Below are positions 841 through 49,944 of a stretch of 64,000 nt of DNA, piece after piece. The notes below the pieces were generated by a model. It was not told where the DNA came from, did not search any database, and saw only the letters and a program-made list of their open reading frames with translations. The stretch is taken from the NCBI GenBank assembly GCA_965217585.1, contig OZ244561.1, positions 608,001-672,000 on the forward strand. The letters are read 5' to 3'. Numbering within the stretch: position 1 is the first letter of the stretch; every line of letters starts with the position of its first letter. This DNA comes from Candidatus Latescibacterota bacterium. Lineage in GTDB: Bacteria; Latescibacterota; UBA2968; UBA8231. The position numbers and the translations under genes are program-made.

Positions 841-1548
841 ATGCAGAAAGCGCGTTGGGAAAAGGGCAACGTCAGCAACCTGATTTCGCTCGCCCTGTTG
901 GTGGCGGGCCTCTGGGGGCGCGTTGAGGGCGTCGGCGGCAGCGAGTGGGTGTTGGCGGTTGGATTGTTTGGATTTGCCGGCGGGGCGACCAATTGGTTGG
1001 CAGTAAAGATGCTCTTCGACCGCGTGCCCCTGCTGTACGGATCCGGGGTGATTCCAGCGCGGTTTCGCGCCATCAGGGAAGCGGTCAAAGACGCCATCAT
1101 GCGCTACTTCTTCGACGAGGAATATCTAGAGCGATTCTTCGCCGAGCAGATGGCCGGCGAGGATGTCGGGGAAAAGGTGCAAACGGTGCTAGCGTCCGAT
1201 GAAGTTGACGCGATCATCGACCGCAAACTCGAAGAGTTGGCAGAATCGCCGCAAGGAATGATGATCCAGTTGGTGGGGACGCAGACGGTCAAGCCGCTGG
1301 TCAAGCAGTTCGTGATCGGGTTCGGGAGCGAGATTGCGCCGCTTTTGGCCGGCGGAGCGGGTACAGAAGTCAAAGCGATGCGGGCGCAGGTTGACGGACT
1401 GTTGGAGACCAAGCTAGAGGAACTGACACCCGACCGGGTCAAGGAGATGATGGAGGAAGTAATCCGCGAACACTTGGGCTGGCTAATCGTCTGGGGCAAT
1501 GTGTTCGGTGGCACTATTGGACTGTTATCTAAAGCACTGGGGTATTGA
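841..1548 (+). CDS. DUF445-family membrane protein
   Basis: N-terminal GGATNWLAVKMLF and C-terminal WLIVWGNVFGG motifs. Confidence 0.8.
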   Translation: MQKARWEKGNVSNLISLALLVAGLWGRVEGVGGSEWVLAVGLFGFAGGATNWLAVKMLFDRVPLLYGSGVIPARFRAIREAVKDAIMRYFFDEEYLERFFAEQMAGEDVGEKVQTVLASDEVDAIIDRKLEELAESPQGMMIQLVGTQTVKPLVKQFVIGFGSEIAPLLAGGAGTEVKAMRAQVDGLLETKLEELTPDRVKEMMEEVIREHLGWLIVWGNVFGGTIGLLSKALGY

Positions 1549-1549
1549 A

Positions 1550-2356
1550 ATGAGTCAATGGAATTTGCGCGGCGAAGTAGCGGCAGTTATCGGTGGGACC
1601 GGCGTATTGGGCGGAGCGATGGCCCAGGGATTGGCCGAGGCCGGAGCCTCTGTAGCAGTGTTGGGACGAGACCACGACCGGGGGCATAAGCGAGTAGCGG
1701 CGATAGAGGCAGCAGGAGGCACGGGCGTTTTCGCCGCCTGCGACGCCACGGACAAAGCGTCGCTCAAGGCAGCCCATGAAGCGGTCGTCGCGGCATTGGG
1801 TCCCGTCAATGTGCTGCTCAACGCAGCCGGCGGCAATCAGCCGCAGGTGACCCTGAACGACGACCTAGACTTTGCCGCGATAACAACCGACGATTGGCAG
1901 CGCTGTTTCGACCTGAACTTGGGGGCTGGCGCGCTGTTGCCCTGCCAAGAATTCGGGTCGGCCATGGTCGCACGGGGCCGGGGCAGCATCATCAACATCG
2001 CCTCGGTTGCCGCCCACCTGCCGGTTTCGCGGGTGGTGGCGTACTCAGCGGCTAAAGCGGCTGTATTGAACCTAACGCAATTCCTCTCGCGGGAGTGGGC
2101 TGACAAAGGCGTGCGGGTCAACTCCATTACCCCGGGCTTCTTCCCCGCCGAGCAAAACCGCCGCTTGCTCTTTGAAGACGACGGCACCCCAACCGAACGC
2201 GGCCAACAAATCCTCTCCCACACCCCCATGGACCGCTTTGGCCGCCCCGAGGAACTGGTCGGCGCAGCGGTGTTCCTCGCATCGGACGCGGCCAGCGGCT
2301 TCGTCACCGGCACGGACATCCGCGTTGACGGAGGGTTTTTGGCGACGACGATCTAA
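1550..2356 (+). CDS. SDR oxidoreductase (D-mannonate/gluconate dehydrogenase-like)
   Basis: GGTGVLG, NAAGG, YSAAK, VDGG motifs; ATG at 1550. Confidence 0.9.
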   Translation: MSQWNLRGEVAAVIGGTGVLGGAMAQGLAEAGASVAVLGRDHDRGHKRVAAIEAAGGTGVFAACDATDKASLKAAHEAVVAALGPVNVLLNAAGGNQPQVTLNDDLDFAAITTDDWQRCFDLNLGAGALLPCQEFGSAMVARGRGSIINIASVAAHLPVSRVVAYSAAKAAVLNLTQFLSREWADKGVRVNSITPGFFPAEQNRRLLFEDDGTPTERGQQILSHTPMDRFGRPEELVGAAVFLASDAASGFVTGTDIRVDGGFLATTI

Positions 2357-2382
2357 AGAGCGGCGAGACGCCACGCTTTACA

Positions 2383-2613
2383 GTGAAGAAAAAAACATCA
2401 CAGTTTGCGATTTGTCTCAACAACGAGGGCTATGAGGCTTCTCTTGAAGTCGGAAAAGTGTATCGCGTACTTCCCGATCGGGAGGCCGCTGCGCACGGGT
2501 ACATTCGCATGGTGGATGAAAGTGGCGAAGATTACGCATTTGATGCCGACCGCTTTTACAAGATCGAATTCCCACCCCCGGTTGAAGCAACGCTAGATGC
2601 TGCTCTGCACTAG
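2383..2613 (+). CDS. small conserved hypothetical protein
   Basis: 76-aa ORF with ASLExGKVY...IRMVDESGEDY pattern. Confidence 0.7.
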   Translation: MKKKTSQFAICLNNEGYEASLEVGKVYRVLPDREAAAHGYIRMVDESGEDYAFDADRFYKIEFPPPVEATLDAALH

Positions 2614-2640
2614 GTTATCAGGCGGCTAGGAATATGGTCT

Positions 2641-2683
2641 CGGACATCCGCGTTGACGGAGGTTTTTGGCGACGACGATCTGA
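2641..2683 (+). repeat. 43-bp copy of the SDR 3' end (2313-2356)
   Basis: cggacatccgcgttgacggagg(g)tttttggcgacgacgatct; 1-bp deletion, TGA instead of TAA. Confidence 0.95.
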
Positions 2684-2704
2684 GCTTCGATCACAGAAGC
2701 TTAA

Positions 2705-3121
2705 TCATGGAAATTTTCTGAAATATGTAGCTGATGCTTCATAGCCAATTGCCTTGTAAAACGCTTCAGCCCTTCGAGTTGCCAACGCGATCAATCTTGA
2801 ATTTCTCTCCTTAGCTTTCTTCTCAGCAATCTCCATGAGTCTTCTACCTATGCCTTGCTTCCGGCATTCATCTTCTACGAATAATTCCTCGACCCAACTC
2901 ACAGGACCATTGGCAAAAAAGGTCAGGTGGTGAAACACCAGAACATAGCCCTTAAGATCGGATTCGGATTCTGCCACTATCAGATCAACATTCTCATCTT
3001 TGATCAATCGCGAGAAGGAAGTTTCAAAGGAATGTGCGTCGATCTCAAAACTTGAGGCGAATTTCTTTACAAGAGTTAATAGCTGATCTTGATCTTGATC
3101 CATTGCTGTTCTATAGTGCAT
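2705..3121 (-). CDS. GNAT family N-acetyltransferase (cassette-like)
   Basis: ELFV...RKQGIGRRLM and FYKAIGY motifs; GTTATAG core directly before the ATG. Confidence 0.9.
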   Translation of the reverse strand: MHYRTAMDQDQDQLLTLVKKFASSFEIDAHSFETSFSRLIKDENVDLIVAESESDLKGYVLVFHHLTFFANGPVSWVEELFVEDECRKQGIGRRLMEIAEKKAKERNSRLIALATRRAEAFYKAIGYEASATYFRKFP

Positions 3122-3154
3122 TTTCTATAACTCCGAGCAAATACAGTTATATGC
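3122..3154 (-). repeat. short att-like site (TATAAC-14 bp-GTTATA)
   Basis: inverted cores tttctataac / gttatatgc between the leader and the GNAT ORF. Confidence 0.55.
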
Positions 3155-3253
3155 TATTTATGCGAAACGAAGGTACGTCTCTTGGTGCATAGTCGCAATC
3201 GCAACGAGCGACCGGATACGAGCCGACAAAGCCGTCCGGTCCTAGTGCGAGAG
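3146..3253 (-). promoter_or_regulatory. cassette-array leader copy 1 with putative sigma70 promoter
   Basis: near-identical to 12213-12314; minus strand TTGCGA (3198-3193), 17 bp, TACCTT (3175-3170). Confidence 0.65.
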
Positions 3254-3522
3254 CGCGCGAGTGGGCCGACAAAGGCGTGCGGGTCAACTCCATCACCCCG
3301 GGCTTTTTCCCCGCCGAGCAAAACCGCCGCTTGCTCTTTGAAGACGACGGCACCCCAACCGAACGCGGCCAACAAATCCTCTCCCACACGCCCATGAACC
3401 GCTTTGGCCGCCCCGAGGAACTGGTCGGCGCAGCGGTGTTCCTCGCATCGGACGCGGCCAGCGGCTTCGTCACCGGCACGGACATCCGCGTTGACGGAGG
3501 GTTTTTGGCGACGACGATCTAA
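3254..3522 (+). pseudogene. 269-bp duplicate of the SDR 3' end (2088-2356)
   Basis: 6 substitutions counted by eye, 5 synonymous; lacks the N-terminal two-thirds of the gene. Confidence 0.95.
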
Positions 3523-3526
3523 GACC

Positions 3527-3561
3527 ACTTCCGCAGCAGCCGGAGGTAGAACAGCGGGTTG
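3527..3561 (-). repeat. 35-bp duplicate of the 3' end of the geranylgeranyl reductase-like gene (12355-12389)
   Basis: encodes NPLFYLRLLRK versus NPLFYLRLLWK; 3 mismatches. Confidence 0.9.
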
Positions 3562-3613
3562 CCGGAGGCCAAGACGCTACAGGCACCGCAGCGCGAACCA
3601 TGCTGTTATTCGA
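3556..3613 (-). repeat. attC-like site, truncated
   Basis: gggttgccggaggccaag..cgcagcgcgaacc..gttattcg is homologous to the right half of 5833-5930; contains the TAA of the methyltransferase. Confidence 0.8.
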
Positions 3614-4424
3614 TGTCCCGCCTCTTCACAACAAGAAGAATGTGGCCACTCGCACCCAAGAGAGAGCGATCTCGATCGGTTCGGTCTATCATCTCGAGCA
3701 TGATAGCCCGTTGTCGCGGATCCGACCAAATTTGATCAAAATTCTGCCAAAACCACGCCACACCCTCGACGGCGATGTGATCCACAATCTGTAAATGTGC
3801 CTCCTCAGCTTCCCGTTCGATCTCATCCGGGTGGTGGAAATAGGCATCAGTAAAGTATCTGGTATTGTCCTTGTTGGGACGGTGGACACCTGTTTCTAAG
3901 TCTTGCCGCACAATATCCAGATATTCCGGATCCTCAAATAAGCCACTTATGAAACCATCGAACATCGACCCAAACCTCGAGATATATGCCACATACCCGA
4001 CCCCGTTGGGGGCAAGCCAATCGGCGACCTTCCGTAGCACTAGGCTGCGCTCGTTTGCATCGGTGAGATGGTACATGGGTCCCAAAAGTAGGACTACATC
4101 ATACTGCTGAGACTCAAGTTCGAGAGATCGTACATCGGCAGTTTCGATCCGAGAGAGCGGATTTGGCGCTTTCTTGTTGATCGACACGGCCTCTTCAACG
4201 TGGTTAGGCATCAAATCAAACAAGGCGACCTTGTGCCCCTTCTCGGCAAGCCAGAACGCGTACGGTCCAGATCCTCCACCAACGTCTACTATCGACAAAC
4301 CAGTTTCATCGGGGAGAAACTGCTCTATGATCTGTTTAGTGCGGAGGAATTCTAGCTCGCCCCGGCCACTGAAGAGACGTTGGCTCTCGTTCTTTCTGTT
4401 GTAATAGGTCGCTATTCGATCCAA
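3606..4424 (-). CDS. class I SAM-dependent methyltransferase
   Basis: DVGGGSG motif I, LLLGPMYHL. Confidence 0.92.
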   Translation of the reverse strand: MDRIATYYNRKNESQRLFSGRGELEFLRTKQIIEQFLPDETGLSIVDVGGGSGPYAFWLAEKGHKVALFDLMPNHVEEAVSINKKAPNPLSRIETADVRSLELESQQYDVVLLLGPMYHLTDANERSLVLRKVADWLAPNGVGYVAYISRFGSMFDGFISGLFEDPEYLDIVRQDLETGVHRPNKDNTRYFTDAYFHHPDEIEREAEEAHLQIVDHIAVEGVAWFWQNFDQIWSDPRQRAIMLEMIDRTDRDRSLLGASGHILLVVKRRDIE

Positions 4425-4442
4425 TCAGCACCTCATCTGAGG

Positions 4443-4835
4443 CTATTCGTCGTGGGGCCTCTCAGCCATGAGTGCAAGGATGTTCATCTCGCTATCTCGA
4501 AAGAACGCCATCCACAACTCGTGGTCTTGAAGATCAGCAATCTTGTGAGGCCCTCCATCGAATGGCACGTTCCTACCCTTCAAAACCCGGTAGGCGTCAT
4601 GGATGTCGTCAACTCTGTAATACAGAACAGAGGAATGGATATCATCAGACTGCCCCTCCGGGATACTCAACATGAGGCGTACGCCTGAGCAATCAAAGAA
4701 CGCCATGTTCGGCACCCGAAACAGGAACTGCATTTCCAGTTGATCTCGGTAGAAGGTAACTGCCCTGTCGAGTTCCTTCACGGTGACAGATATTTGCCCT
4801 ATGGTCGATAGACCGAATCCACTATGCTGCGTCAT
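4443..4835 (-). CDS. VOC/glyoxalase family protein
   Basis: IGQISVTV...FYRD, FFRDSEMNILAL; AGGAGG RBS before the ATG at 4835. Confidence 0.9.
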   Translation of the reverse strand: MTQHSGFGLSTIGQISVTVKELDRAVTFYRDQLEMQFLFRVPNMAFFDCSGVRLMLSIPEGQSDDIHSSVLYYRVDDIHDAYRVLKGRNVPFDGGPHKIADLQDHELWMAFFRDSEMNILALMAERPHDE

Positions 4836-4918
4836 TCTGGACCTCCTGTGGTGTGGGTTCAATAGCTGCTCCTACGAACCTAAACTACAGAATTCCTCGG
4901 CCGCAGACTTCTCTGAAA

Positions 4919-5791
4919 TCACCTTTTTGTTCTGCGGAATTGTCTCGGCGAGAGACCATAGTGCCGCCGAAAAAGCCAACTGAATGAACCAAGGCTTGCG
5001 AATCCGATTTCTAGGGCAATCTCTGTCACAGTCCGATCTGTAGTCTCCAATAGCCTGGCGGCTCGCTCCAGTCGCTTCATAACAAGATACTGGTGTGGGC
5101 TCTGACCGACTATCTGGCGAAATGTCCGCAGGAAGTGATTCGAGGAGAGACACGCCACCTTAGCCATCGCATCGAGGGAGATCGGCTCCGAGAGGGAGGA
5201 ACAGATATAGTCGCGAGCCATGTGGATGCGACGGTAAAGCTCCTTTCGCGTCGCCGCACGAACGGCCTCAACTGTCTCTACTTCCTTCAAAACCTGATGA
5301 TGTGCACTCAGAAGTCCAACCATCACCGCGTGCATCTGCTCCTCGACCCATCCAAGCTCTTCACTTCGCAGTGAGTACTCTGATCTGAACCGGCTCAGAG
5401 TCGGAGTCAGAACGCGATCCTGCGGGCGAGTGGTCTGGAAGAATTCCAACCGGCGCGACTGACGTGCTGGATCATCAAGAAGCTTGATAGCTCTAGAATT
5501 GATGGATGCGTAGACCTCCTCAGCAAATCCATCCCTGAAGAAGACACAAAATGACCCAACAATCGAAGGAGAGTCGATAGATACCGTGTATTCCTGTCCG
5601 TAATTCAGAATCAGATATGAATGCTCATCGACTTCGATCGCGTGATTGTCGATCTCATACTTTGCCGTGCCATTTGAGAATGACTTGACCGACAGACCTC
5701 CCTTGCCCGTCCACAGATGGTGTTTGCTGGCGGCATTCAGCACTTCGTTGGGGGCACCACTATCGTATGCAGGGCCATTCATGTCGATCAA
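4919..5791 (-). CDS. AraC family transcriptional regulator
   Basis: C-terminal double HTH (SSNHFLRTF...IALEIGF...FSWLFRRHYGLSP). Confidence 0.93.
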   Translation of the reverse strand: MIDMNGPAYDSGAPNEVLNAASKHHLWTGKGGLSVKSFSNGTAKYEIDNHAIEVDEHSYLILNYGQEYTVSIDSPSIVGSFCVFFRDGFAEEVYASINSRAIKLLDDPARQSRRLEFFQTTRPQDRVLTPTLSRFRSEYSLRSEELGWVEEQMHAVMVGLLSAHHQVLKEVETVEAVRAATRKELYRRIHMARDYICSSLSEPISLDAMAKVACLSSNHFLRTFRQIVGQSPHQYLVMKRLERAARLLETTDRTVTEIALEIGFASLGSFSWLFRRHYGLSPRQFRRTKR

Positions 5792-5832
5792 GGCATTCCC
5801 TCAGAGGCTTTTATGAGTTGGTTTTTTCCATT

Positions 5833-5930
5833 GCGGATAACGTTCTCGCCGTGCCCGAACCCCAAGCTTGTCGAGGGGTTGCCGGAGGCCAAGGCGCGAA
5901 GCGCCACAGTGCAAACACGGTGTTATAGGC
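5833..5930 (-). repeat. attC-like site (98 bp)
   Basis: gcggataac...gttataggc inverted cores around an imperfect palindrome; the upstream ORF stops inside the core. Confidence 0.88.
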
Positions 5931-6935
5931 TGTGGGAGATCCCGGCACTCTCCAGCAATTCGTCTCCCATCTCGATTCCTCGGTGTGGTAGGCGCATCAA
6001 CTCACCGTGGATATCAAAAGTCGAGAATGGAGGATCTGTGATTTTAGAACCCCACTTTCGGTAGAGGAAGCTGAGTCTATCTGCATAGTAGGCTGCCCAA
6101 ACCACCGGAACGCTCTTATTTCCGACTGAGATAGAGCTCTCCCCTCGTGATAGCCAAGCAATATCTCCCTCGCTTCCGCAACATTCAGCGGTCTAGATTC
6201 ACCCATAAGATCCCCCATTAACCACTGGTGACGCGTCATGACAAGATCCACCAAAGCTGGAGAAAACTCCCCGCTGCTGAAATCCGTGAACGCGACACAG
6301 CCAGTGCCGGCCCCGATCACATTACCTGCACGAACATCCCAATGGCAAAGGATCCAAGGGACGCTTGCGTCAAGAGCCGTTGCATGGCTGTTTTCCAGTA
6401 GTTGCGCTAATTCGTACACTGGCTGTGCGATTTCCGTATCAAGCCGACCGAGCGCGCTGGAAAGTCGATCTTGCGCCCAGCGGCGGACAGGTCGCTCGCG
6501 CACTGGCTGTTCCTGAAATAATCCGGCAGCATTATGAATGCTCGCAAGAACCTTGCCCGTCTTCTTCAGATAGTCGAGATGGCGAGAATCTAACGGCTGG
6601 CCTGGAAGTAGGCTCTCCAAGGAGACTGTATAGTCCCGATATGGAACTGAGAATTCGCCGTTAAGGGTTGGTACAATCTTGGGAACTGGTGCTCTCGAAG
6701 ATGAAAGGTGGTCCACAAATCGAACGATCAACTCTGGCGGCGAGGGACCATCCCACCCTGGATTGGTGCGAAGAACAGAATTTCCTTGCGCGCTGCGCAC
6801 AAAATGGACGTTCCTGGAAGTGGGCGTTTCTACTTGAACGGCTGCGACACCCCAGTGCTTCCAGAGAATGTCTGAAGCTTCCTCAGTCGTCACCATCGGT
6901 GACGTAGATTCTCGATCACGGGGGAATGAAGTCAT
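5923..6935 (-). pseudogene. phosphotransferase (APH/kinase-like), frameshifted near 6105
   Basis: HWDVRAGN and FTDF kinase motifs; C-terminus continues in ORF 5923-6105, whose TAA lies in the attC core. Confidence 0.72.
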
Positions 6936-8178
6936 GACTCTTACTGTTTTTGCGAAACTGGCGTTGTAGTATTTTCCACAAGGGGTTCATTCCTCGTGGC
7001 TTGAATTGCTCGGGATCTTTGCCCTGTTCGACAGCTTGCCAATAATGCCAACCCATCTTGTGACTCGATGCGATTTCATAATCTAACCCCGTCCATGATC
7101 CATCACCGCGAAAGGCGTAAAACGACCAATGCCAACCTTGGCTGTTATAGATTTCTATTAGGTCGCTCAGGTAGGCCGCAGCGCCTTCGAGCCGGCGGTC
7201 GTACCAGAATTCTGAAGCTATGATTCGGTGAGAAGGTATCTCATATCGCTCAGAAAACCGCTGCACCGCGTTGATCTCCTCCGCAAGACGATCGATAGTC
7301 CACGACTCTATAGGACCGTTCCACCACTTCGGAACTCGGTCTGGATAGGCGTACCGGTCCTTATTGGCTCGATAAGTCACCATCTGCCACGGACCGGGGT
7401 TGTGAAAAGCGTACAACACTTTGTCATCATCTACAGGGCGATTGAAGTCGAACGCTTGAGGAGCGGCATAGAACCAGCCATCGAGCATGATGGGCGTATC
7501 TGCGTCTACTGAACGGATGGATTCGACCATCCGCTGGTTAAATCGGTTGAGGTCAGCTGGCGTATTCTGGATGTCCTGAAACCATTGGCTGAAATTCTCG
7601 TCCGGTTCTGCAAAACCGAATACCTTCTCTGGATGTGGTTCATTGAGAGGGTTGTAAGCCACGATTGCAGGATGCTTTTCCAAACGCATTGCTAACTGAC
7701 GCCAGAAATTGAAGGCTTGCTTATGGTAGCTTTCGTCACGCCAGAGCCGGCCATCATCTTGGTTCTCATTCAGCTGCTTCCAGCGTCCACCGGGCAAGCT
7801 GGCCATCGCAAGGACAACTTTGATACCATTGCTCTCGGCTTCATTGAGTGCTTCTACCAACAGGGCTAGATCGGTCTCATTGATTGCTGCGAAATTATCT
7901 GCGTTGCCGATTAGGAAGTCTCTATTATCGGCGGGCCATGCATCGGGTAAAATCCGAACATAATCCAGTCCCAGTTCACCTGCCGCCCTGTACCACTCAG
8001 GACGATGTCGCTCGTTTTGCTGATTAGCTCCCTTACGCTGCTTTTCCCAAAAGCCAATCTTGGGAGCATCGGCCATAACGCCGCTGGTGAAGCACAAAAT
8101 AGATATCATTGAAACTATGTATCTATAAATACCCCGTTGCCGCCCTTCTTTACGACCGTTTCCGTTCCTAATAAGCAT
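6916..8178 (-). CDS. glycoside hydrolase family 5 (cellulase-like), probably secreted
   Basis: YNPLNEP acid/base, AFH, ASEF nucleophile, WSFY; signal-like N-terminus. Confidence 0.85.
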   Translation of the reverse strand: MLIRNGNGRKEGRQRGIYRYIVSMISILCFTSGVMADAPKIGFWEKQRKGANQQNERHRPEWYRAAGELGLDYVRILPDAWPADNRDFLIGNADNFAAINETDLALLVEALNEAESNGIKVVLAMASLPGGRWKQLNENQDDGRLWRDESYHKQAFNFWRQLAMRLEKHPAIVAYNPLNEPHPEKVFGFAEPDENFSQWFQDIQNTPADLNRFNQRMVESIRSVDADTPIMLDGWFYAAPQAFDFNRPVDDDKVLYAFHNPGPWQMVTYRANKDRYAYPDRVPKWWNGPIESWTIDRLAEEINAVQRFSERYEIPSHRIIASEFWYDRRLEGAAAYLSDLIEIYNSQGWHWSFYAFRGDGSWTGLDYEIASSHKMGWHYWQAVEQGKDPEQFKPRGMNPLWKILQRQFRKNSKSHDFIPP

Positions 8179-8198
8179 CTGTGCTTTATGGCTTCACG

Positions 8199-8259
8199 TT
8201 CCTGTAACGTTTCAGGGTTTGCGAACCCCGAAGGGATTGCCAAGGCCAAGCCGCCGCAG
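8199..8259 (-). repeat. attC-like half site
   Basis: ttcctgtaacgtttcagggtttgcgaacccc...gccaagccgc matches the left arms of the other sites; right arm missing. Confidence 0.75.
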
Positions 8260-8276
8260 TTCGCTCTAAACTTCAA

Positions 8277-9000
8277 TCAGGCTTTCTTCCTGCGAAATGC
8301 CAAAGCAGTTTCGTAGTGCTTGGTGATCGATCCTCCGTAGTTCTTGTTTATCAGGTCAGCGATGCCGTCAAATAGATGCGTGCGATTGAATTCGGGCAGC
8401 GCGATATGGTCAGAATAGGTGCCAATGAGTTTGATGTACTGTTCCGCAGAATAGTTCGCTGTCCATGCGTACACTCGGTGGATAGGATCGGCAAAAGCAG
8501 TAGTTCCAGGTTCTGGGGACTCTGATGTCGTCGGAGTACTGGGATCCCGAGGGGAATCTGAAACTACATAATGCTTGCTATAAACTTCCTGGACTTCCGC
8601 AAAGAAACCTTCGTCTTTTCTTACGTGTTGGTTGGAGAAGATGGCCAATGATCCCCTAGCCTTCAGGGTGTCACGGGCTCTAATGAATCTGACTCTTGGA
8701 CTCACCCAGCGGAATGCAGTCGCGGAGATCACAAGGTCAAACTTGCTAGCCGAGTCCCAATCTGCGAAAGGACACAGGACGAAGCGAACGTTCTTGTAGT
8801 TGTTGAGTCGCGCCCGCGCAACCTCGATCAAATCTTGGCCAATATCCAAACAGGTCATTTCGCAACCGAGGGTAGCAAATAATCTCGAAGCCTGTCCGAT
8901 TCCACACCCGACTTCCAGGATTTTTCCGCTCCTATCGATTCCGGACGTCATAGAGCGAGGCAATGGTATTGAAAGTAGTTCTGAGATCAGGGCGGGGCAT
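8277..9000 (-). pseudogene. class I SAM methyltransferase with 5' deletion/frameshift
   Basis: ATG at 9000 gives MPRPDLRTTFNTIASLYD, out of frame with the LEVGCGIG-containing body. Confidence 0.7.
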
Positions 9001-9025
9001 TAGAATTCCCATGACACGCAAACGC

Positions 9026-9790
9026 CTATGATGGCAGGGCGATTGCCTTGGCAATCAAGAGTGTCGGCACTATGCTTTCTCGACGCCTCTCCACCAAGTC
9101 TGCTACAGAATCAAGCGGTTCAGAGATCTCGGCAAGTTGGAATCCACTTCTGATCAAGGTATTGAAGTACGTTGAAAGCGTTCGGTGGTGGCTACCAAGC
9201 GTGCCACACATCCCGATTCCATCCGAGTACCATTTGCCTTCAAGGCCATACCGTGAAACACGCAATGCCTTGAAATTTCCCTCTTCGTCAAACTCCTCCT
9301 GTGGATTCTCTGCATTGAACGGAGGGAAAAGGCACGGATGAAGAATTGTGAAGATGAACTTGCCATTGTCGAGAAGTATCCGACGGACATTGAACAATGT
9401 TGCCGTTAGGTCAGGGATATCCATGAGTGCCATGTTGCAAGTAACGGCATCCATGCTGGCGTCGGACACCTGATTCAGCGATTGTGCATCGTCCAGGACA
9501 TAGGTGATGCCGTGGTCAGCAGAATGCTCCTTTGCATGCCGCAGCAGCATCTGTGAAATATCAACACCCGTAACGAGAGCACCTCGACTCGCTAGGATGC
9601 GAGACAGATACCCTTCACCGCATCCCAAGTCACATATACTGGTCCCTTGGACATCGCCCAGCATAGTCAGCATGACTTCTACCGAGGGCTGGATACGCCT
9701 ATTCCTATCCGGAACATTCCTATCCAGCCAGTTGAGATAGAAATCACCTACCTTGTCATATTCAGAATCTGCCACCTCATCGATTCCCAT
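9026..9790 (-). CDS. class I SAM-dependent methyltransferase
   Basis: DLGCGEG, GVDIS, NMALMDIPD, HRTLSTY. Confidence 0.92.
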   Translation of the reverse strand: MGIDEVADSEYDKVGDFYLNWLDRNVPDRNRRIQPSVEVMLTMLGDVQGTSICDLGCGEGYLSRILASRGALVTGVDISQMLLRHAKEHSADHGITYVLDDAQSLNQVSDASMDAVTCNMALMDIPDLTATLFNVRRILLDNGKFIFTILHPCLFPPFNAENPQEEFDEEGNFKALRVSRYGLEGKWYSDGIGMCGTLGSHHRTLSTYFNTLIRSGFQLAEISEPLDSVADLVERRRESIVPTLLIAKAIALPS

Positions 9791-9868
9791 GGTATCAGTC
9801 CCGTTGGGACACGGGATCTTCGACCGTCCAAGCTACGCGTTATAAAACAAGTGACCTTTCCCAGCGAC

Positions 9869-9986
9869 ATATAGCAATCCTGAATGACTTGAACGATTAG
9901 AGCTGCGGATCGTCTTGTGCATACTATTCTGTGTCCATCTGCGTCCATCTGCGGATTATCTTATGAATGATTTAGGATTGCTATAT
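9869..9986. mobile_element. MITE-like element (118 bp)
   Basis: 19-bp terminal inverted repeats atatagcaatcctgaatga / tgatttaggattgctatat (2 mismatches); no coding capacity. Confidence 0.7.
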
Positions 9987-10015
9987 CACATTATTCTCTG
10001 CATTTCTGATTCAAT

Positions 10016-10075
10016 TTCAGCTAACGTTTTCGCCATGCCCGAACCGCGAAGCCAGGCACGGACGTGTTATGTGAA
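10016..10075 (-). repeat. attC-like site (60 bp)
   Basis: ttcagctaac...gttatgtgaa; left arm resembles the 5833 site. Confidence 0.85.
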
Positions 10076-10091
10076 GTGCACTATTTCCCTC

Positions 10092-10886
10092 TTAGTCTAC
10101 GAAGTCATGGATCCTTTGATACACGCTCAACTTGGCCTGATCCAATTCTTGCCCATACTCCCGGAAAAACAAGGGAACCCACTCACCACCCAGATTTCTG
10201 CGAATCGTGTTGTACGCGGCGACAAAGTCGAGATAGCGATCTCCTATTCCTGCATAACCCCAATCAATGTAGCCACTCAGGTGGCCATTGACGATCATGA
10301 CGTTGGGAAGGCAATAATCCCCGTGGGTGAACACCACGTCTTCTGGCGGCAGGTCGGCTCGTATGCTTGCCAGTTCATCCCGCAGGACATTTCTAGTGCC
10401 GCCTTTGGGGATCTGACCATCCAGCACTCCTGAATCAATCAGGTCTGTCGCCCACGCAAAATAGCGTTCAAAGCGCCAATCCAATGGGCACGAATCAACT
10501 GGAATTGCGTGAATCTCGCGAAGTCCATGAGCGAACATACGTATTAGACCTGGGGTATCTGTCTTGGCGTCTTCGTGGACACCAGAGACGCCAGCGATTC
10601 GGGTCATCAGCAGATACTGAGTATTGTTTTCCTCGTGGAAGCAGACCACGCTAGGCACACTCAGTTTGTCGTGCAACCAAGACATCGCCGCTTTTTCGGC
10701 GCGAAGATCAGATTCTTGCGGCGCAGCGAGCGCATCTCTGATTTTGAGGAACAAACTCTGCTTGCTCGGGTGAGTAAATGAGAATACATCGGCGCACGAT
10801 TCAGTCCTGAGGTTGTCGCCATTTGAGGCGAAACCCTTCAGATGGGCTTGGACCGGATCTGGTAGATCTTGGACTATCAACGTCAA
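10092..10886 (-). CDS. APH(3')-family aminoglycoside phosphotransferase
   Basis: LFLK, HGDYCLPNV, GYIDWG, GDRYLDF motifs; 264 aa. Confidence 0.85.
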   Translation of the reverse strand: MTLIVQDLPDPVQAHLKGFASNGDNLRTESCADVFSFTHPSKQSLFLKIRDALAAPQESDLRAEKAAMSWLHDKLSVPSVVCFHEENNTQYLLMTRIAGVSGVHEDAKTDTPGLIRMFAHGLREIHAIPVDSCPLDWRFERYFAWATDLIDSGVLDGQIPKGGTRNVLRDELASIRADLPPEDVVFTHGDYCLPNVMIVNGHLSGYIDWGYAGIGDRYLDFVAAYNTIRRNLGGEWVPLFFREYGQELDQAKLSVYQRIHDFVD

Positions 10887-10915
10887 CCTGCGTTCGAGGA
10901 TTGCCTAAAATTCAT

Positions 10916-11013
10916 TTCACATAACGGTTCTCCGGTTTGCGAACCCCCGGAGGGGGTTGCCCGAAGGGCCAATCCGCGAATGTGCCGCAGCGTAAACTGC
11001 GCTGTTAAATGAC
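10916..11013 (-). repeat. attC-like site (98 bp)
   Basis: ttcacataac...gttaaatgac with shared ggtttgcgaaccc/gttgcccg/ggccaa internal motifs. Confidence 0.9.
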
Positions 11014-11043
11014 GTGGGCCAATCCGCGGCAAGATATAACGGG

Positions 11044-11550
11044 CTAAACCTCCTCGGCGAAGTCCGATGAGAGAGCTCCCCGAAATCCAATGCGTTTGTG
11101 CGGATCTCTATATTGAGTCAATTCGTGATGTCCGATCATGAAGCCTTGGGACTTCCAGAACGTCAGGGCGCTCGGATTGTCGCGGCGTACATTCAAGTCA
11201 ATCCGATCGATACCCAAGCCGTCGGTGATTTCCGTTACGGCTTGTACAAGGAATGACCCAATGCCCTCCCGGCGTTGCGCAGGAATAACGTAGAAGTCAT
11301 TGATCTTCGCGCTAGTGCCACTAATTGAAAATGAAACAAATCCAACTGGGGACCCTTCGCTGAGGCACCAGAAAATCCTTGGTTCCGGACTGGAAAGGGG
11401 AAACCGATCTGCGAAATACACATCGCGGCGATCCGATGAACGTACTGTATCAGCAGTTGGCATTGTCTCCAACCAGTAGGCATCAACCAGTGGCCGAAAC
11501 CTATTCTCATCGGAAGGAAGCACCTGCTCGAATTCAAGGCGAACGCTCAA
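11044..11550 (-). CDS. GNAT family N-acetyltransferase
   Basis: DFYV..QRREGIG, N..ALTFWKSQGF; start codon uncertain. Confidence 0.85.
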   Translation of the reverse strand: MSVRLEFEQVLPSDENRFRPLVDAYWLETMPTADTVRSSDRRDVYFADRFPLSSPEPRIFWCLSEGSPVGFVSFSISGTSAKINDFYVIPAQRREGIGSFLVQAVTEITDGLGIDRIDLNVRRDNPSALTFWKSQGFMIGHHELTQYRDPHKRIGFRGALSSDFAEEV

Positions 11551-11578
11551 AACTCATTTCCTCTCACATAAGACCCAT

Positions 11579-11678
11579 GTCATTTAACGTTTTCACGGTT
11601 TGCGAACCCAAGAAGCGAGTTGCCCGTAGGCCAAGCCGCCTGAAGGGCGGCGCAGCGCGAGCCGAGCCGTTATAGGAC
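11579..11678 (-). repeat. attC-like site (100 bp)
   Basis: gtcatttaac...gttataggac with the family internal motifs. Confidence 0.9.
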
Positions 11679-11685
11679 GTGTGTT

Positions 11686-12126
11686 CTACTTACGAGCTTC
11701 CATTAAATGTAGCAGTAAGTCGATCTTGTCGTCATAATTGGCGACAAGTTTGGGAAGTGCTCTGACATCGGCCCAAAAGAAATCGAATGGATGGACTATC
11801 GATCCGTCCTCCGCGTATTCTCCATGGCACCAGTTGTCCTTTGTTGGTCCTTCTACAGACAAATGAAAGAACCAGCGGTACTGTAGTTCATCGGTCCCGC
11901 AATCCCGCATGTCCCGGGTATCCTGGGCCAGGAACTGCTCATATCTGAGATCGGACAACCCGGTTTCCTCTTCTGCTTCCCGCATCACGGCATCCTGGGG
12001 ATTCTCTCCGGGCTCAATCGTTCCGGCTGGAACTTGAATGCCAGCTTCCGGTGCCTCGGGTTGAGTAAAGAGGAGCAGGCGGCTCCCGTTGGTGATATAG
12101 GCGTAAGCTCTGTGCCGGATTTTCAT
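11686..12126 (-). CDS. NUDIX hydrolase
   Basis: Nudix box GTIEPGENPQDAVMREAEEETG. Confidence 0.93.
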   Translation of the reverse strand: MKIRHRAYAYITNGSRLLLFTQPEAPEAGIQVPAGTIEPGENPQDAVMREAEEETGLSDLRYEQFLAQDTRDMRDCGTDELQYRWFFHLSVEGPTKDNWCHGEYAEDGSIVHPFDFFWADVRALPKLVANYDDKIDLLLHLMEARK

Positions 12127-12167
12127 CTCAATTGGAGAACTATGAAGTCACAGTGTTTGTTTCTCAT

Positions 12168-12221
12168 GTCCTATAACTGCTTGCACCCGAACAAGTAGTT
12201 CGGGTAACGGCCGCTAGATGC
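12168..12221 (-). repeat. short degenerate att-like site
   Basis: gtcctataac, hairpin acccgaac/gttcgggt, second core degenerate (gctagat). Confidence 0.6.
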
Positions 12222-12314
12222 TATTTATGCGCAACGAAGGTATATCTCTTGGTGCATAGTCGCAATCGCAACGAGCGGCTGAGCGGACAAGGCCGTCCGG
12301 TCCCCGTGCGAGAG
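12213..12314 (-). promoter_or_regulatory. cassette-array leader copy 2 with putative sigma70 promoter
   Basis: TTGCGA (12265-12260), 17 bp, TACCTT (12242-12237), pointing into the array. Confidence 0.65.
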
Positions 12315-12339
12315 CGCGGGAGTGGGCCGACCAAGGCGT
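12315..12339 (+). repeat. 25-bp stub of the SDR gene (2088-2112)
   Basis: cgcgggagtgggccgaccaaggcgt; same start point as the 3254 copy. Confidence 0.8.
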
Positions 12340-12352
12340 TCTGAGACCGTGC

Positions 12353-13594
12353 CTACTTCCACAGCAACCGGAGGTAAAACAGCGGGTTGGTCAACACCTT
12401 GCGCGGCACGGCGTCGGCCATCATGCCGCAGATCAGGTCGCTGACCTCGGCGTTTTTGGCGGCCTTGCGAATGACCAAGTTCATCAGATAGGGCCAGCAG
12501 CCCAAATTGTGCAGCTTGGTGCTCAGCTTCAGCTCGCTGCCCAGCGCATCCCACAGCCGATCCTCGTAGCGCCGCAAAAAGCCAGCCGAATAATCCCCCG
12601 CCTCCCGGGCCTGAGTTGCAGTCTCCACGGCAAAGCGGGCCGAGTACAGAGCATTGCCAATGCCCTCGCCCGTGAACGGGTCAATCAGGCCGGCTGCGTC
12701 GCCCAAGAGCAAAAAGCCGTTGCCGTGCGCCGGTCGCCGCCGCGAGCCAACCGGCAAGTTCCAGCCGACCGGGGCTTCGAGGGGACGGGCGTCGCGAAAG
12801 CGCGCGCCAAAGGTCGTACTCGCCACTGCGGCTGCGAGCGCGTCCTTGAGATCGATGCCGCGCGCCTTGATATCTCGGTGATCCATGCCGATGCCGACAT
12901 TGGCGCGGTTGCCCTCTAAAGGAAAGATCCAAAAATACCCGGGCCGCACCTCGTCTATAAAGTGCAATTCTATCTGATCGCTCAGGTCCGCCACGCCCCC
13001 GAAGTACTGCCGCAGAGCCACCATCCAATCGCGGCCCTCGTGGCGGTATAATCCGCTCTTGCGGGCGACGATCGAATTAAAGCCATCGCACCCTAACACC
13101 AAGGGCGCGCGAAATTCCAAGCGCGTGCCATCGGCTGTACGCCCCCGCACCCCGCAGACCTGCTCGCCTTCTCTCAGGAGATCGCGCACGTTAAAACCCT
13201 CTACGGTATGGGCGGCTGCGGCCTGCGCCTTGGCAAAGAGAAAGTCGTCGAAGACCTCGCGGCGGATGACAAAGCCCTCCATCGGCAGCACCCGACCAGT
13301 CAGGGCGTTGTGCAGATCGTAGCTGCTCAGGTCAATGGACGCGGCGGTCGCGTCTGGGCTGCCGAAGACAATACGGGCAACGGTCGCCCCAGGCAGATTG
13401 CACACCTCCTCGAAAAGCCCCAGATCGTGGAGGATGGCCACCGTCTTGCCAGAGAGGGCGTCGCCGCAGATCTTGTCGCGGGGGAAGCACTGCTTGTCCA
13501 GCAGCAGAGCCGCCAGCCCGTGACGCTGCGCATACAGCGCGGCCGTGGCACCAGCCGGACCGCCGCCGACGATAATTAGGTCGTAGGTTTGCAC
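12353..13594 (-). CDS. geranylgeranyl reductase family FAD oxidoreductase
   Basis: GGGPAG, FPRDKICGD, GYFWIFP, GDAAGLIDPFTGEGI. Confidence 0.92.
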   Translation of the reverse strand: MQTYDLIIVGGGPAGATAALYAQRHGLAALLLDKQCFPRDKICGDALSGKTVAILHDLGLFEEVCNLPGATVARIVFGSPDATAASIDLSSYDLHNALTGRVLPMEGFVIRREVFDDFLFAKAQAAAAHTVEGFNVRDLLREGEQVCGVRGRTADGTRLEFRAPLVLGCDGFNSIVARKSGLYRHEGRDWMVALRQYFGGVADLSDQIELHFIDEVRPGYFWIFPLEGNRANVGIGMDHRDIKARGIDLKDALAAAVASTTFGARFRDARPLEAPVGWNLPVGSRRRPAHGNGFLLLGDAAGLIDPFTGEGIGNALYSARFAVETATQAREAGDYSAGFLRRYEDRLWDALGSELKLSTKLHNLGCWPYLMNLVIRKAAKNAEVSDLICGMMADAVPRKVLTNPLFYLRLLWK

Positions 13595-13715: not shown

Positions 13716-15614
13716 ATGTCCGAAGACGTCCACACCGAAAATCCACAAGTCGAAAAACGGGCTTTTCAAACCGAGGTCCAACAGGTACTGCACCTGCTGG
13801 TCCATTCGCTGTACACCCAAAAAGAAATTTTCTTGCGCGAGCTGATCTCCAATGCCTCAGACGCGCTGGACAAAATTCACCACCGCTCGCTGACCGACCG
13901 CAATATCCGCGACCCCGACGCCGAATTGGACATTGAGCTCGAGGTGTCGAGCAGCAACAAGACCCTGACCATCCGCGACCGGGGGATCGGCATGACCCGC
14001 GACGAGGTCAATGAGAATATCGGCACCATTGCCCGCTCCGGCTCGGCTGAGTTTACCGCCAAGCTGGCCGACGCCGACGATGAGCAAGAGAAGCTCAAAC
14101 TGATCGGCCAATTCGGGGTGGGCTTCTACTCGGTCTTCATGGTGGCCGACCGAGTGGTGCTCACCACGCGCTCGGCCGACCCAGAAGCCGACGGGGTGCT
14201 GTGGGAATCCACCGGCGACGGGGCCTACACCCTATCCCACGCCGACAAGGCCGACCGCGGCACCGAGATCAAGCTCTACATCCGTTCGGACTGCGAGGAA
14301 TTTCTCGATGCCCACCAGCTAGAGGCCATCATCCGCAAGCACTCGGATTTTGTCGCGTACCCCATCAAGGTCGCCGGCAAACAGGTCAACGACACGGCCG
14401 CGCTGTGGACCCGGCCGCGCAACGAAATTACTCCCGAACAATACAACGAGTTTTACACGCACCTGACCGGCGACCCCGACGAGCCACTCGCGTCCGAGCA
14501 CATCGTCGTGGATGTGCCGATCCAATTCTACGCCGTGCTCTACATTCCCAAGCGCGCACCGGTCCAATGGCTGCACGCAGAGCCGACGATCTCGCTCAAC
14601 CTGCACGTCGCACGGGTTTTTATCCAAGACGACTGCAAGGAGCTTTTGCCGCTGTGGCTGCGCTTTGTGCGCGGCGTGGTTGACTGCGACGACCTGCCGC
14701 TCAACGTCTCGCGCGAAACCCTCCAGCAAAATCCCATCATCACCAAAATCCGCGCCACCTTAGTCCGGCGCATCATCGGCATGTTGGAGGGAATGGCGAA
14801 GAAGGATGAAGAGCAGTACATGGCCTTTTGGCACGCCTGCGGCACCATCCTCAAAGAGGGCGTGGCCACCGATGCCGCGCACCAAGCCCAGCTCGCCAAG
14901 CTCCTGCGCTACCGCTCCTCGCTAGCCGACGACGACACGCCCTACATTTCGTTGCAGAACTACGTCGATCGGATGCAGAGCGAGCAGGACAAGATCTACT
15001 ACCTCGCCGGCGAGAACAAAGAGGCCATCGCCCAAAGCCCCCTGTTGGAGGCCTTCCGCAAGCGCGGCATAGAGGTGCTCTACTTCGACGAACCGGTCGA
15101 TGAATGGGTCATCCAAGGGCTGCAAAAGTTCGCCGACAAAGAGTTTGCGGGCGTGGATGCGGCCGAGCTGAACCTGGACGAGGATGCGGTCAAGTTGGAA
15201 GGGGTCGACGATCAGAAGGCCGAAGCCATCGAGCTGCTCGCCTTTCTCAAGCAGAAGCTCGCCGGCCGGGTCGAGGACGTGGTCGAGTCCAAGCGGCTGA
15301 CCGACAGCCCCTGCCTGCTAGTCGCCAGCCAAGGCGGCTTGAGCCGCAACATGGAGCGGCTGATGAAAATGACCGATCGCGAATTCAAAGGATCACTGCG
15401 CACGCTAGAAATCAATCGCCAACACCCGATCATCCGCAACATGGCCGCCGTACTCAAGCGCGACCGCGACTCCGAGCAATTGGCGAACTGGGCCCATTTT
15501 CTGGTTGATTTCGTATTGTTAGGCGAGGGCACAGTCGAGGATCCACAGCGGCTGAGCCAGAGCTTGCAGTCCATCATGGGAGCGGCCACCGCGCATGCCG
15601 CCGAGGAGAGTTAG
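13716..15614 (+). CDS. htpG: molecular chaperone HtpG (Hsp90)
   Basis: EIFLRELISNASDALDK, IGQFGVGFYS, LNVSRE. Confidence 0.98.
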   Translation: MSEDVHTENPQVEKRAFQTEVQQVLHLLVHSLYTQKEIFLRELISNASDALDKIHHRSLTDRNIRDPDAELDIELEVSSSNKTLTIRDRGIGMTRDEVNENIGTIARSGSAEFTAKLADADDEQEKLKLIGQFGVGFYSVFMVADRVVLTTRSADPEADGVLWESTGDGAYTLSHADKADRGTEIKLYIRSDCEEFLDAHQLEAIIRKHSDFVAYPIKVAGKQVNDTAALWTRPRNEITPEQYNEFYTHLTGDPDEPLASEHIVVDVPIQFYAVLYIPKRAPVQWLHAEPTISLNLHVARVFIQDDCKELLPLWLRFVRGVVDCDDLPLNVSRETLQQNPIITKIRATLVRRIIGMLEGMAKKDEEQYMAFWHACGTILKEGVATDAAHQAQLAKLLRYRSSLADDDTPYISLQNYVDRMQSEQDKIYYLAGENKEAIAQSPLLEAFRKRGIEVLYFDEPVDEWVIQGLQKFADKEFAGVDAAELNLDEDAVKLEGVDDQKAEAIELLAFLKQKLAGRVEDVVESKRLTDSPCLLVASQGGLSRNMERLMKMTDREFKGSLRTLEINRQHPIIRNMAAVLKRDRDSEQLANWAHFLVDFVLLGEGTVEDPQRLSQSLQSIMGAATAHAAEES

Positions 15615-48983: not shown

Positions 48984-49944
48984 CGTGCGGGTGGGCCTCG
49001 GCGTAGATGGCTTGCAGGTGCTCCAAGCTCACTTCGGTATAGCTCTGAGTCGCGGCCAACGTCGCGTGCCCGAGAAGCTCCTTAACGGCCACCAAGTCGG
49101 CACCAGCGTCGAGGAGGTGGGCGGCAAAGGAGTGGCGCAGGCGATGCGGGCTGAGCGAATCGTCTTCGGAGACTGCGCGCAGATGGCGCTCGACGATGCG
49201 TTGCACGGTGCGGCGGCTCAAGCGCTTGCCGCGCCCGTTGAGGAAGAGGGCACCGGCTTCTACTTGGGACATATCGCATTCGAGCAGAACCTCGGCGCGG
49301 CGTTGCAGATACGCTTTGAGAGCCTCTTGTGCCTTCGCACCGATGGGAGCGAGGCGCTCCTTGCGGCCCTTGCCCATCACCTTGATGGTGCCTTCGCCCA
49401 GATCCAGCGACGAGAGGTTGAGCGCCAATAGCTCTCCGAGGCGAATCCCCCCTCCGTAGAACACCTCTAGAATGGCCCGATCCCGCACGCCACTGAACCG
49501 CTCGGTCGAAGGGGCTTCCATAGCCTCGGCGACCTGTTCTACGGGCAGGTGCCGCGGCAATGCACGCTCGACTAAGGGCGATGCCACCGCACCAGCCGGG
49601 TTGGCGACGAGCGCGCCCTCGCGACAGAGATAGCGGAAGAGCGAGCGCAGGGCCGCCAACTTGCGGGCGACGGTACTGGCCTTGAGGCCCTTTTCCTCTA
49701 GGTCGGCGACAAAGGACTGCACCTGCTCGTGCTGCACCACTCGGAGCGGCAGTTGCAAATTATCGACTCGCGGGTAGAGAAAGCGGGCGAATTGCTGCAA
49801 GTCGCAGCAATATGAACTGAGGGTGTACTCGGCGCAGTTGCGCTCTTTGTGCAGGTATTCCAAGAAGCGGGCAATGCCCTCTTCGAGGCTGGATCCGGCG
49901 TGCAGAGCGCTCTGCGGTGCATCGGCCATGGCGTAGCGAGCCAA
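48973..49944 (-). CDS. xerC: tyrosine recombinase XerC
   Basis: RDRAILE...GIR, GKG.KER, H.LRHSFA.H, LLGH, Y; directly downstream of topA. Confidence 0.9.
   Translation of the reverse strand: MARYAMADAPQSALHAGSSLEEGIARFLEYLHKERNCAEYTLSSYCCDLQQFARFLYPRVDNLQLPLRVVQHEQVQSFVADLEEKGLKASTVARKLAALRSLFRYLCREGALVANPAGAVASPLVERALPRHLPVEQVAEAMEAPSTERFSGVRDRAILEVFYGGGIRLGELLALNLSSLDLGEGTIKVMGKGRKERLAPIGAKAQEALKAYLQRRAEVLLECDMSQVEAGALFLNGRGKRLSRRTVQRIVERHLRAVSEDDSLSPHRLRHSFAAHLLDAGADLVAVKELLGHATLAATQSYTEVSLEHLQAIYAEAHPHGAD

Follow-up and report, generated by a model that had tools for sequence, protein, structure and literature searches.

Integrase-less clusters of attC sites (CALINs) were defined by Cury et al. 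(2016; PMC4889954) as at least two attC sites close together with no intI nearby; according to the parts of that paper used here, half of them lie in genomes without IntI, and 95% have no intI pseudogene in their vicinity. Here we describe such a cluster from a 64,000-nucleotide (nt) stretch of the genome of a Candidatus Latescibacterota bacterium (contig OZ244561.1, positions 608,001 to 672,000; hereafter the window, to whose numbering coordinates refer unless given as genome positions). It occupies about 10 kb between the converging genes of a short-chain dehydrogenase (SDR) and a GGR-like FAD oxidoreductase. With a probability of about 0.6, we read it as an array of integron cassettes that lacks an integrase, occupies a chromosomal hotspot without insert in some congeners, and was built up by the mechanism proposed below. 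It shares with the CALINs of Cury et al. (2016) the clustered attC sites without intI, the sites being those called by our own covariance model R1. In contrast to CALINs as portrayed there, the array is tied to one syntenic junction genus-wide, carries a repeated leader at its head, has copies of both flanking gene ends interleaved, and holds cassettes that appear younger than their flanks.

The ilvD-linked integron of Xanthomonas occupies a fixed site, has lost its integrase lineage-wide and carries species-specific arrays, while inter-species cassette transfer was shown by comparing cassette with genome identity (Colombi et al., 2025; PMC12444791). The window locus resembles it in fixed site, integrase loss, species-specific arrays and inter-species transfer. 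However, an intI gene or pseudogene lies beside the Xanthomonas array, whereas the close clade of the window genome has none, and the window array sits between converging genes and carries their duplicated ends. Two further systems touch on single aspects of the locus: gene-less promoter cassettes (Blanco et al., 2024; PMC11014356; Tansirichaiya et al., 2019; PMC6557892), and the swapping of cassette blocks without integrase through flanking identity after DNA uptake (Domingues et al., 2012; PMC3575428). A literature search for integrons of Latescibacterota, judged by title and the beginning of the abstract, found none.

Locus Layout and Comparison with Relatives

The window genome (G000) is a single closed contig of 7,323,734 bases; below, G001, G012 and so on denote genomes of its genus, and L017, L022 and so on denote loci of relatives. 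The SDR gene and the GGR-like gene converge on an interval of 9,996 nt (2357–12352) that contains 11 genes of cassette type and six attC-like sites in the same orientation, as well as a leader in two copies, three stubs of the SDR 3' end and one stub of the GGR 3' end (Table 1). The GC content is 0.46–0.55 inside the interval compared to 0.58–0.64 in the flanks. A sequence-only reading of the window had described this stack of stubs, leaders and cassettes between SDR and GGR, and every piece it listed was found at its position. Based on Pfam, the cargo consists of a NUDIX hydrolase, two GNAT acetyltransferases, two APH-family kinases, three methyltransferases, a GH5 glycosidase, a glyoxalase-family protein and an AraC-type regulator, which is typical cassette cargo. 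The SDR gene adjoins a DUF445 gene in all 16 resolved congeners, and the GGR-like gene is present in 41 of 41 relatives.

The interval itself ranges from empty to larger than that of the window. Among 24 close loci (GGR about 90% identical or more), 16 were resolved on both flanks, 12 of them within 10 kb and four more from 20 kb; of the unresolved ones, G005 shows SDR fragments only, and the others are cut off by the end of a short contig or were not followed further. In L017 the site is empty: the interval is 9 nt counting both stop codons, with a 3-nt spacer between them. It measures 466 nt in L022, 1170 nt in L059, 2.1–5.8 kb in nine other congeners, and approximately 9.6 kb in G012, 11.4 kb in G010, 11.7 kb in G007 and 14.6 kb in G001. 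Cassette content and order differ widely among congeners, and cassettes recur in different orders. Thus the comparison across relatives that had been proposed as a check revealed an empty site and variable content together with the same leader and stubs. The minimal filled site, in L022 (11230–11740), contains one small open reading frame (ORF) that by eye resembles a helix-turn-helix antitoxin, and a short CCACTGA tandem run.

Public sequencing runs were compared as contigs, the best run holding 0.82 of the sampled words. Contigs from other samples match parts of the interval exactly and show alternative joins as well; those from two other samples have 0 differences over 2583–3180 and 4407–5894. 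One RNA run (share 0.07) gave contigs on the small ORF and on three methyltransferase cassettes with 95–99% identity, and none on the leader; no inference on expression or habitat is drawn from it.

Probable Movement of Cassettes between Species

In all six cassette-sharing pairs, cassette genes exceed six flanking core genes in between-species identity by 2–5 percentage points. Compared to G001, nucleotide identity is 93.7–95.1% for the six flank genes and 96.4–99.8% for the eight shared cassette genes; compared to G012, the flanks reach 90.9–93.7% and five closely shared cassettes 94.0–96.2% (a GNAT relative with 77% was left out). The same direction was found in G010, L084, L011 and L009. 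Since the cassettes are more alike than the flanks, the blocks probably moved recently and, judged by these identities, cassette DNA is younger than its surroundings. This agrees with the exchange of blocks between strains that the sequence-only reading had suggested.

Where that reading placed the crossovers is a different matter. Recombination was thought to be anchored in the flanking core genes, yet between the window and G001, the closest pair, the block of 97–99.8% identity stops before GGR and SDR, with 91–95% at the GGR 3' end and 90–93% at the SDR 3' end. Since the array-proximal ends of both genes show no raised identity, the last exchange between the two was most likely anchored inside the interval. 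Crossovers in GGR or SDR beside the array, from which raised identity is expected, were thus rejected for this pair.

Single cassettes have also been on the move. The GNAT cassette at 10955–11609 has a counterpart of 96.5% identity in the 4.30-Mb array of G000; the high identity begins at the R' box GTTAAAT of the upstream site, and the bodies of the upstream sites differ. On this alignment, the boundary of the duplicate at R' is a classical cassette boundary. The methyltransferase cassette at 8259–9014 is 90% identical to its counterpart in G001, while its neighbors on both sides reach 97–99%, which suggests the replacement of a single cassette. Next to the interval, the protein identity of HtpG (13716–15614) is bimodal, with 81–84% in L017, L018, L022, L024, L031, L059 and L072 and 90–96% elsewhere. 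GGR identity is 90–96% in all loci of this comparison, and the combination suggests allele replacement beside the hotspot.

Gene-End Copies and Junction Scars

The 35-nt GGR copy, nucleotides 3523–3526 and the 269-nt SDR copy together reproduce an empty-site junction; the empty site of L017 has the sequence of this internal GGR35-4nt-SDR269 piece. Comparable duplications occur in relatives. In L022, 32 nt of the GGR/SDR junction are duplicated around the insert, and the array of L072 is flanked on both sides by GGR(37)-3nt-SDR(54), a 94-nt duplication. Because the two stop codons are 3 nt apart, an insertion that spares both genes must carry or create a second gene-end copy. The repeats of 32 nt, 94 nt and 35+269 nt have different ends and no tyrosine recombinase gene lies beside the array, which is not the pattern of a site-specific island.

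The window and L072 have the same join between a truncated attC and GGR. This join lies in 8 nt that are common to attC and GGR, CAACCCGC, and intact versions of the site occur in L011 and G001. By its sequence, the attC::GGR stub represents illegitimate joining at a microhomology of 8 nt, instead of a crossover between allelic host genes as had been assumed for the module boundaries. The 25-bp SDR stub reported next to GGR is present as well, but the alignment identifies it as the same 269-nt unit with an internal deletion of approximately 240 nt.

Joins between stubs and leaders fall into two types. Type 1, SDR(269) followed by a 41-nt joining piece and the leader, occurs in two copies each in G000 and G044. 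Type 2, SDR(~53) followed by 5 nt and the leader, occurs in three copies in G001 and in one copy each in G010, G012, G013 and G024. The proposed stacking of modules is thereby borne out, with two stub-plus-leader units in the window, three in G001 and two in G044. In G001, 61 nt of the sequence usually found behind the SDR stop codon stand ahead of the second unit; unequal recombination of a stub with the genuine SDR end would leave just such a trace. The region of the small ORF (2383–2613) follows SDR in several congeners, and in L016, L020, L021 and L023 a second copy of about 90% identity lies near 9400–9900, between HtpG and GGR.

attC-Like Sites and the Lack of an Integrase

Intergenic stretches of the - strand bear an R'' box (xxTAAC), an R' box (GTTAxxx) and a common inner motif. 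The boxes agree with the inverse core R'' (RYYYAAC) and the core R' (GTTRRRY), for example CCTATAAC...GTTAAAT and CATTTAAC...GTTATGT, while R'' is poor in the site at 8195–8296. Extrahelical bases were noted by eye in these putative attC sites, and sites and cassettes alike conform to the classical integron type. Model R1 was built on a hand-drawn R/L-box structure from 12 sites of the window and its relatives and is not the attC model of IntegronFinder. Its search of the window delivered six sites between 3513 and 11681, all on the - strand, and the next match had an E-value of 1.4. In the R and L helices of the hand-drawn structure 78.2% of the cells are paired, compared to 24–41% if the 3' partners are slid. 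Thus the sites are co-oriented as first read, but they do not delimit each gene: there are six sites for ten genes, and no site was detectable at the junctions 4425–4442, 4863–4918, 6916–6935 and 8964–9025.

Across the genome, R1 gave 20 matches at E ≤0.01, 14 of them outside the window. The latter cluster mainly at 2.157–2.188 Mb (with the cluster extending to 2.192), 3.279–3.294 Mb and 4.303–4.311 Mb, with a further cluster at 98.7 kb, and these other clusters likewise lack an integrase. A search of the window against Rfam at gathering threshold found five tRNAs and nothing else.

With at least two attC sites within a few kb (six by R1) and no intI within cluster distance, the array is a CALIN, and with no IntI beside it, it is not a complete integron. 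Its head is a conserved leader that diverges after GTTA, with no consensus promoter and no integrase that would define an attI. For the integron-integrase family TIGR02249, no match above the 265-bit cut-off was found in G000 (best 84 bits), which answers the suggested search for intI elsewhere in the genome, and none of the 31 genus genomes had a match above it. G000 encodes five tyrosine recombinases, none of which passes this cut-off or lies beside an array. Three were examined and are XerD (346.7 bits, above its own cut-off), an XerC-like protein and a weaker Xer-like protein; the XerC-like gene (48973–49944) is the nearest tyrosine recombinase gene, 37 kb from the array. On the GGR side, no mobility gene was found in 10 scanned ORFs out of 17 with at least 180 amino acids at 15.5–30 kb, the DNA before the window start not having been scanned for transposases. 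The earlier statement that intI, transposase and phage integrase are missing nearby is thus supported throughout genome and genus for the integrase, and for the 10 scanned ORFs for mobility genes.

Within the genus, IntI-like matches occur only in the distant G015, G016 and G017, where they are split or broken. The best one is an IntI-type gene in G015 (L086, C156:1-2386), whose two parts lie in different frames at the beginning of a short contig (251.5 + 160.7 bits); the match in G017 is weaker, and that in G016 is a fragment with a stop codon. The leader was not found beside these fragments, but their contigs are so short that this is not informative.

The Leader and Its Hairpin

The leader unit of approximately 130 nt contains no ORF. 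Its window copies were detected as repeats (D2, 63 nt at 94%; D4, 59 nt at 90%), with a hairpin in copy A and none in copy B. Of the 31 genus genomes, 19 contain the 65-nt core, with one to four copies each, inside and outside the interval. In copy A and many other copies, the core is followed by the hairpin, five bases and GTTA, and the loci diverge straight after GTTA. The arms of the hairpin vary in step (ACCCGAAC/GTTCGGGT, ATCCGAAT/ATTCGGAT, ATCTGAAC/GTTCAGAT). A variant of the hairpin unit occurs at three places inside two other arrays of G000, and all four G000 hairpin copies lie within attC arrays and are oriented like attC sites. In these two arrays, the hairpin has a variant core, which stands behind what looks like the 5' half of a long attC. 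The hairpin boxes can be read as a mini-attC with R'' ATCTAGC and R' GTTATAG. The modules had been described as bounded by gene ends rather than att sites; however, module A is attC-structured, and its leader ends in this mini-attC-like hairpin with divergence at GTTA.

Like the published gene-less promoter cassettes, the leader is a short unit without ORF ahead of cassette genes and is proposed to drive them. It differs in that its core also occurs outside arrays, that its promoter role is putative, and that its site is unusually small (about 50 nt), with TAGC in place of the consensus TAAC in R''. A third core copy of G000 (genome 3327728–3327790) heads an ordinary operon with no attC nearby. 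Outside arrays (genome 3327600–3328040; L101, L103, L110, L115 and L123), the core terminates a conserved stretch of about 200 nt between genes, and in three loci outside arrays it lies beside a divergent gene that by eye resembles a DCC1-type thiol oxidoreductase. A weak TTGCGA-17-TACCTT is visible by eye in the leader. Promoter scans marked one promoter-like site, on the + strand at 3089–3117, and three terminator-like sites in 11500–12500. Six leader loci were compared to Rfam, with nothing at E ≤1.

Further Features of the Interval

The segment 4437–5916 is missing from some relatives and some public contigs. The APH-family kinase gene at 5997–6935 and the GH5 gene overlap and behave as one block, which is common to the window and L012. 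The element at 9868–9990 resembles a miniature inverted-repeat transposable element (MITE). It is absent at the same site in G001, is skipped by public contigs, and sits within a conserved non-coding stretch, of which 9819–9872 is common to ten relatives.

Table 1. Features of the SDR-GGR interval and its flanking genes, in window coordinates.
Feature	Position	Strand	Support
Intact SDR, core flank	1499-2356	+	Pfam adh_short_C2, E 1.8e-48
Small ORF, 76 aa	2383-2613	+	No Pfam match
SDR 3' stub (last 44 nt of SDR)	2641-2684	+	Repeat families D7, D8
GNAT acetyltransferase, module B cargo, no attC after it	2705-3121	-	Pfam Acetyltransf_10, E 8.9e-14
Leader copy B: 65-nt core (3148-3212) and 41-nt joining piece, without hairpin	3148-3253	-	Repeats, alignment
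269-nt copy of SDR 3' end	3254-3522	+	98% identical to 2088-2356
35-nt copy of GGR 3' end	3527-3561	-	91% identical to 12355-12389
Truncated attC, attC-like by R1	3562-3617 (R1 match 3513-3617)	-	R1 41.2 bits; joined to GGR copy
Methyltransferase	3606-4424	-	Pfam
Glyoxalase-family gene	4443-4862	-	Pfam
AraC-type regulator	4919-5791	-	Pfam
attC-like site	5828-5934	-	R1 77.2 bits
APH-family kinase	5997-6935	-	Pfam
GH5 glycosidase	6916-8178	-	Pfam
attC-like site	8195-8296	-	R1 50.5 bits
Methyltransferase	8277-8963	-	Pfam
Methyltransferase	9026-9790	-	Pfam
MITE-like insertion, ~120 nt, terminal inverted repeats	9868-9990		>25 genome copies, 73-93% identity
Short attC-like site, ~61 nt	10012-10078	-	R1 34.3 bits
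APH-family kinase cassette	10092-10886	-	Pfam APH, E 1e-33
attC-like site	10912-11016	-	R1 88.4 bits
GNAT cassette, also in second array of G000	11044-11550	-	96.5% identical to genome 4303372-4304026
attC-like site	11575-11681	-	R1 88.1 bits
NUDIX hydrolase cassette, first gene behind leader A	11686-12126	-	Pfam NUDIX, E 5e-16
Mini-attC-like hairpin of leader A: GTTACCCGAAC, loop, GTTCGGGTGC, AAGCA, GTTATAG	12171-12220	-	Alignment
Leader copy A: 65-nt core (12215-12279) and joining piece	12215-12319	-	Repeats, alignment
SDR stub: head of 269-nt unit and remnant of SDR stop end	12320-12345	+	Alignment; ~240 nt deleted between
Intact GGR-like FAD oxidoreductase, core flank	12353-13594	-	Pfam FAD_binding_3 and GGR_cat

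Proposed Mechanism

Both classical cassette recombination and joins at homology or microhomology appear to have shaped the array. One might envision that inserts arrive flanked by a duplicated junction, joined while two copies of the locus are present in the cell, either on a sister chromosome or on incoming DNA; at least one of these joins would be made at microhomology, leaving the duplications described for L022, L072 and the window. Stubs, leaders and attC sites would then serve as portable homology, on which unequal RecA-type recombination between strain alleles could stack leader-headed blocks and swap segments. Classical attC-by-attC movement of cassettes would have contributed as well, in the past or with an integrase acting in trans, none being encoded in the close clade. 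The leader would be a unit without a gene, in which a promoter-like 65-nt core is joined in copy A by a mini-attC, and most likely drives the genes behind it. This scheme retains the stacking, the variability and the lack of an integrase from the model of the sequence-only reading, but not its position of the crossovers for the closest pair.

The second step resembles the block exchange of Domingues et al. (2012). There, however, the anchors are the conserved segments of class 1 integrons, while at the present locus stubs, leaders and attC sites within the interval are the candidates, and the flank genes show no raised identity in the closest pair. A published precedent for the microhomology end may exist too: in homology-facilitated illegitimate recombination, reportedly described by de Vries and Wackernagel in 2002 for transformable bacteria, homology anchors one end, and a microhomology of a few bases serves to join the other. 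This would fit the 8-nt attC::GGR join, the event here being deduced from its scar alone.

How the first cassette reached the site can be considered separately. We know of no target duplication for integrase-mediated insertion outside att sites; as the sole origin, integrase insertion at a secondary site leaves the duplicated gene ends unexplained and was rejected. Insertion outside att sites, at attG (Loot et al., 2023, preprint, 10.1101/2022.09.11.507474), could nevertheless explain the first landing of a cassette at a non-integron site, but alone it gives no duplicated gene ends, if indeed no target is duplicated.

Alternative Explanations

The array could be a decaying relic, i.e., a former chromosomal integron that lost its integrase and has since undergone erosion only, without continuing gene flow. 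Truncated attC sites, site-less joins, the few recognizable attC sites in many relatives and the missing intI of the clade fit such a history, as does a shared deletion between 4436 and 5917 that has three filler bases in public contigs. Nevertheless, we consider it unlikely, given that the cassettes exceed the flank genes in identity in every cassette-sharing pair, that one methyltransferase cassette diverges between highly similar neighbors, and that content and order differ widely among congeners. Still less probable is a site-specific integrative element whose attL and attR would be the gene-end copies and whose tyrosine or serine recombinase is encoded elsewhere or was lost. While the junction-spanning direct repeats around the inserts of L022 and L072 and the constant joins of stub-plus-leader units within each type are in its favor, the repeats vary in length and end points without a visible shared core, one end is a microhomology join with attC, and no recombinase was found in or beside any interval, the search covering tyrosine but not serine recombinases. 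An assembly artefact, in which repeated ends result from merging co-existing strains, has hardly any credibility left. The genome is indeed metagenome-assembled, and public contigs of the same sample kind show several alternative joins, so strain mixtures exist. However, it forms one 7.3-Mb contig, repeats of at most 269 nt are far below long-read length, and the public contigs of two other samples are free of differences over the two stretches given above. Moreover, like structures are present in independent closed assemblies, namely the three units of G001, the attC::GGR join of L072 and a 247-nt SDR stub in G012.

For the leader, a competing explanation is that it represents the regulatory 5' region, promoter plus RNA hairpin, of a dispersed regulon, and that its place at module heads results from selection for expression. 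The occurrence of the core ahead of ordinary genes, within a conserved intergenic region and without attC nearby, speaks for this, as do the co-oriented ORFs behind 30 of 30 copies and the T-G wobbles that some hairpin variants show on the sense strand. Against it, copies at different loci are 85–97% identical over 65–130 nt, which is more than a binding motif needs, divergence begins exactly after GTTA, the four G000 hairpin copies lie in attC arrays in one orientation, and the leader has no Rfam match. We regard this explanation as possible, though doubtful.

Several results weigh against an integrase-less cassette array with a mobile leader. Five of the six window sites were training sequences of R1, the truncated site at 3513–3617 being the one that was not; covariation is not above column shuffles, 74 of 500 of which reach the observed percentage paired; folding of lone sites beats shuffles for one of six (z -0.08, -2.48, 0.25, -0.51, -1.62 and -0.66), and RNAalifold predicts just five pairs. 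Because of these weak single-site z-scores and few predicted pairs, we used the hand-drawn R/L structure with slide controls. With default filters, R1 finds only 13 sites across 26 relatives' loci and none in the intervals of G012 (9.6 kb) and G010 (11.4 kb); many intervals thus do not qualify as clean cassette arrays, and no per-genome cassette count was used. Recombination is deduced from sequence comparison, the higher identity of cassettes could partly stem from different mutation or selection regimes, and the junctions are taken from the assembled contig. Since the leader core also lies upstream of ordinary genes without attC nearby, the leader need not be a cassette. A consensus scan found no sigma-70-type site in either leader, and the co-oriented ORF within 260 nt behind all core copies is a weak check, as 1504 of 2000 random places have one as well. 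By eye, the wobbles of the hairpin favor no strand and hence do not discriminate between an RNA hairpin and a DNA site.

Significance

Xer recombinases act on single-stranded phage hairpins. One might speculate that the genus gave up its integrase and yet runs an integron-like capture platform, with blocks still passing between species and being stacked at one junction as leader-headed modules, either by host recombination on portable homology or by XerC/XerD acting on the folded mini-attC; we are inclined to doubt this wider idea, which is offered as a tentative one.

Taken together, integrase-less attC clusters are common, but tend to be regarded as dead remnants. In the present uncultured lineage of symbiont type, a single syntenic site can be traced from empty to 14.6 kb in about 20 genomes that are closed or nearly so, and it bears the scars of block addition, i.e., duplicated gene ends, a microhomology join and repeated leaders. 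The leader is a compact candidate for a mobile promoter unit. Thus, the long-standing question of how arrays keep changing without an integrase becomes testable at this locus.

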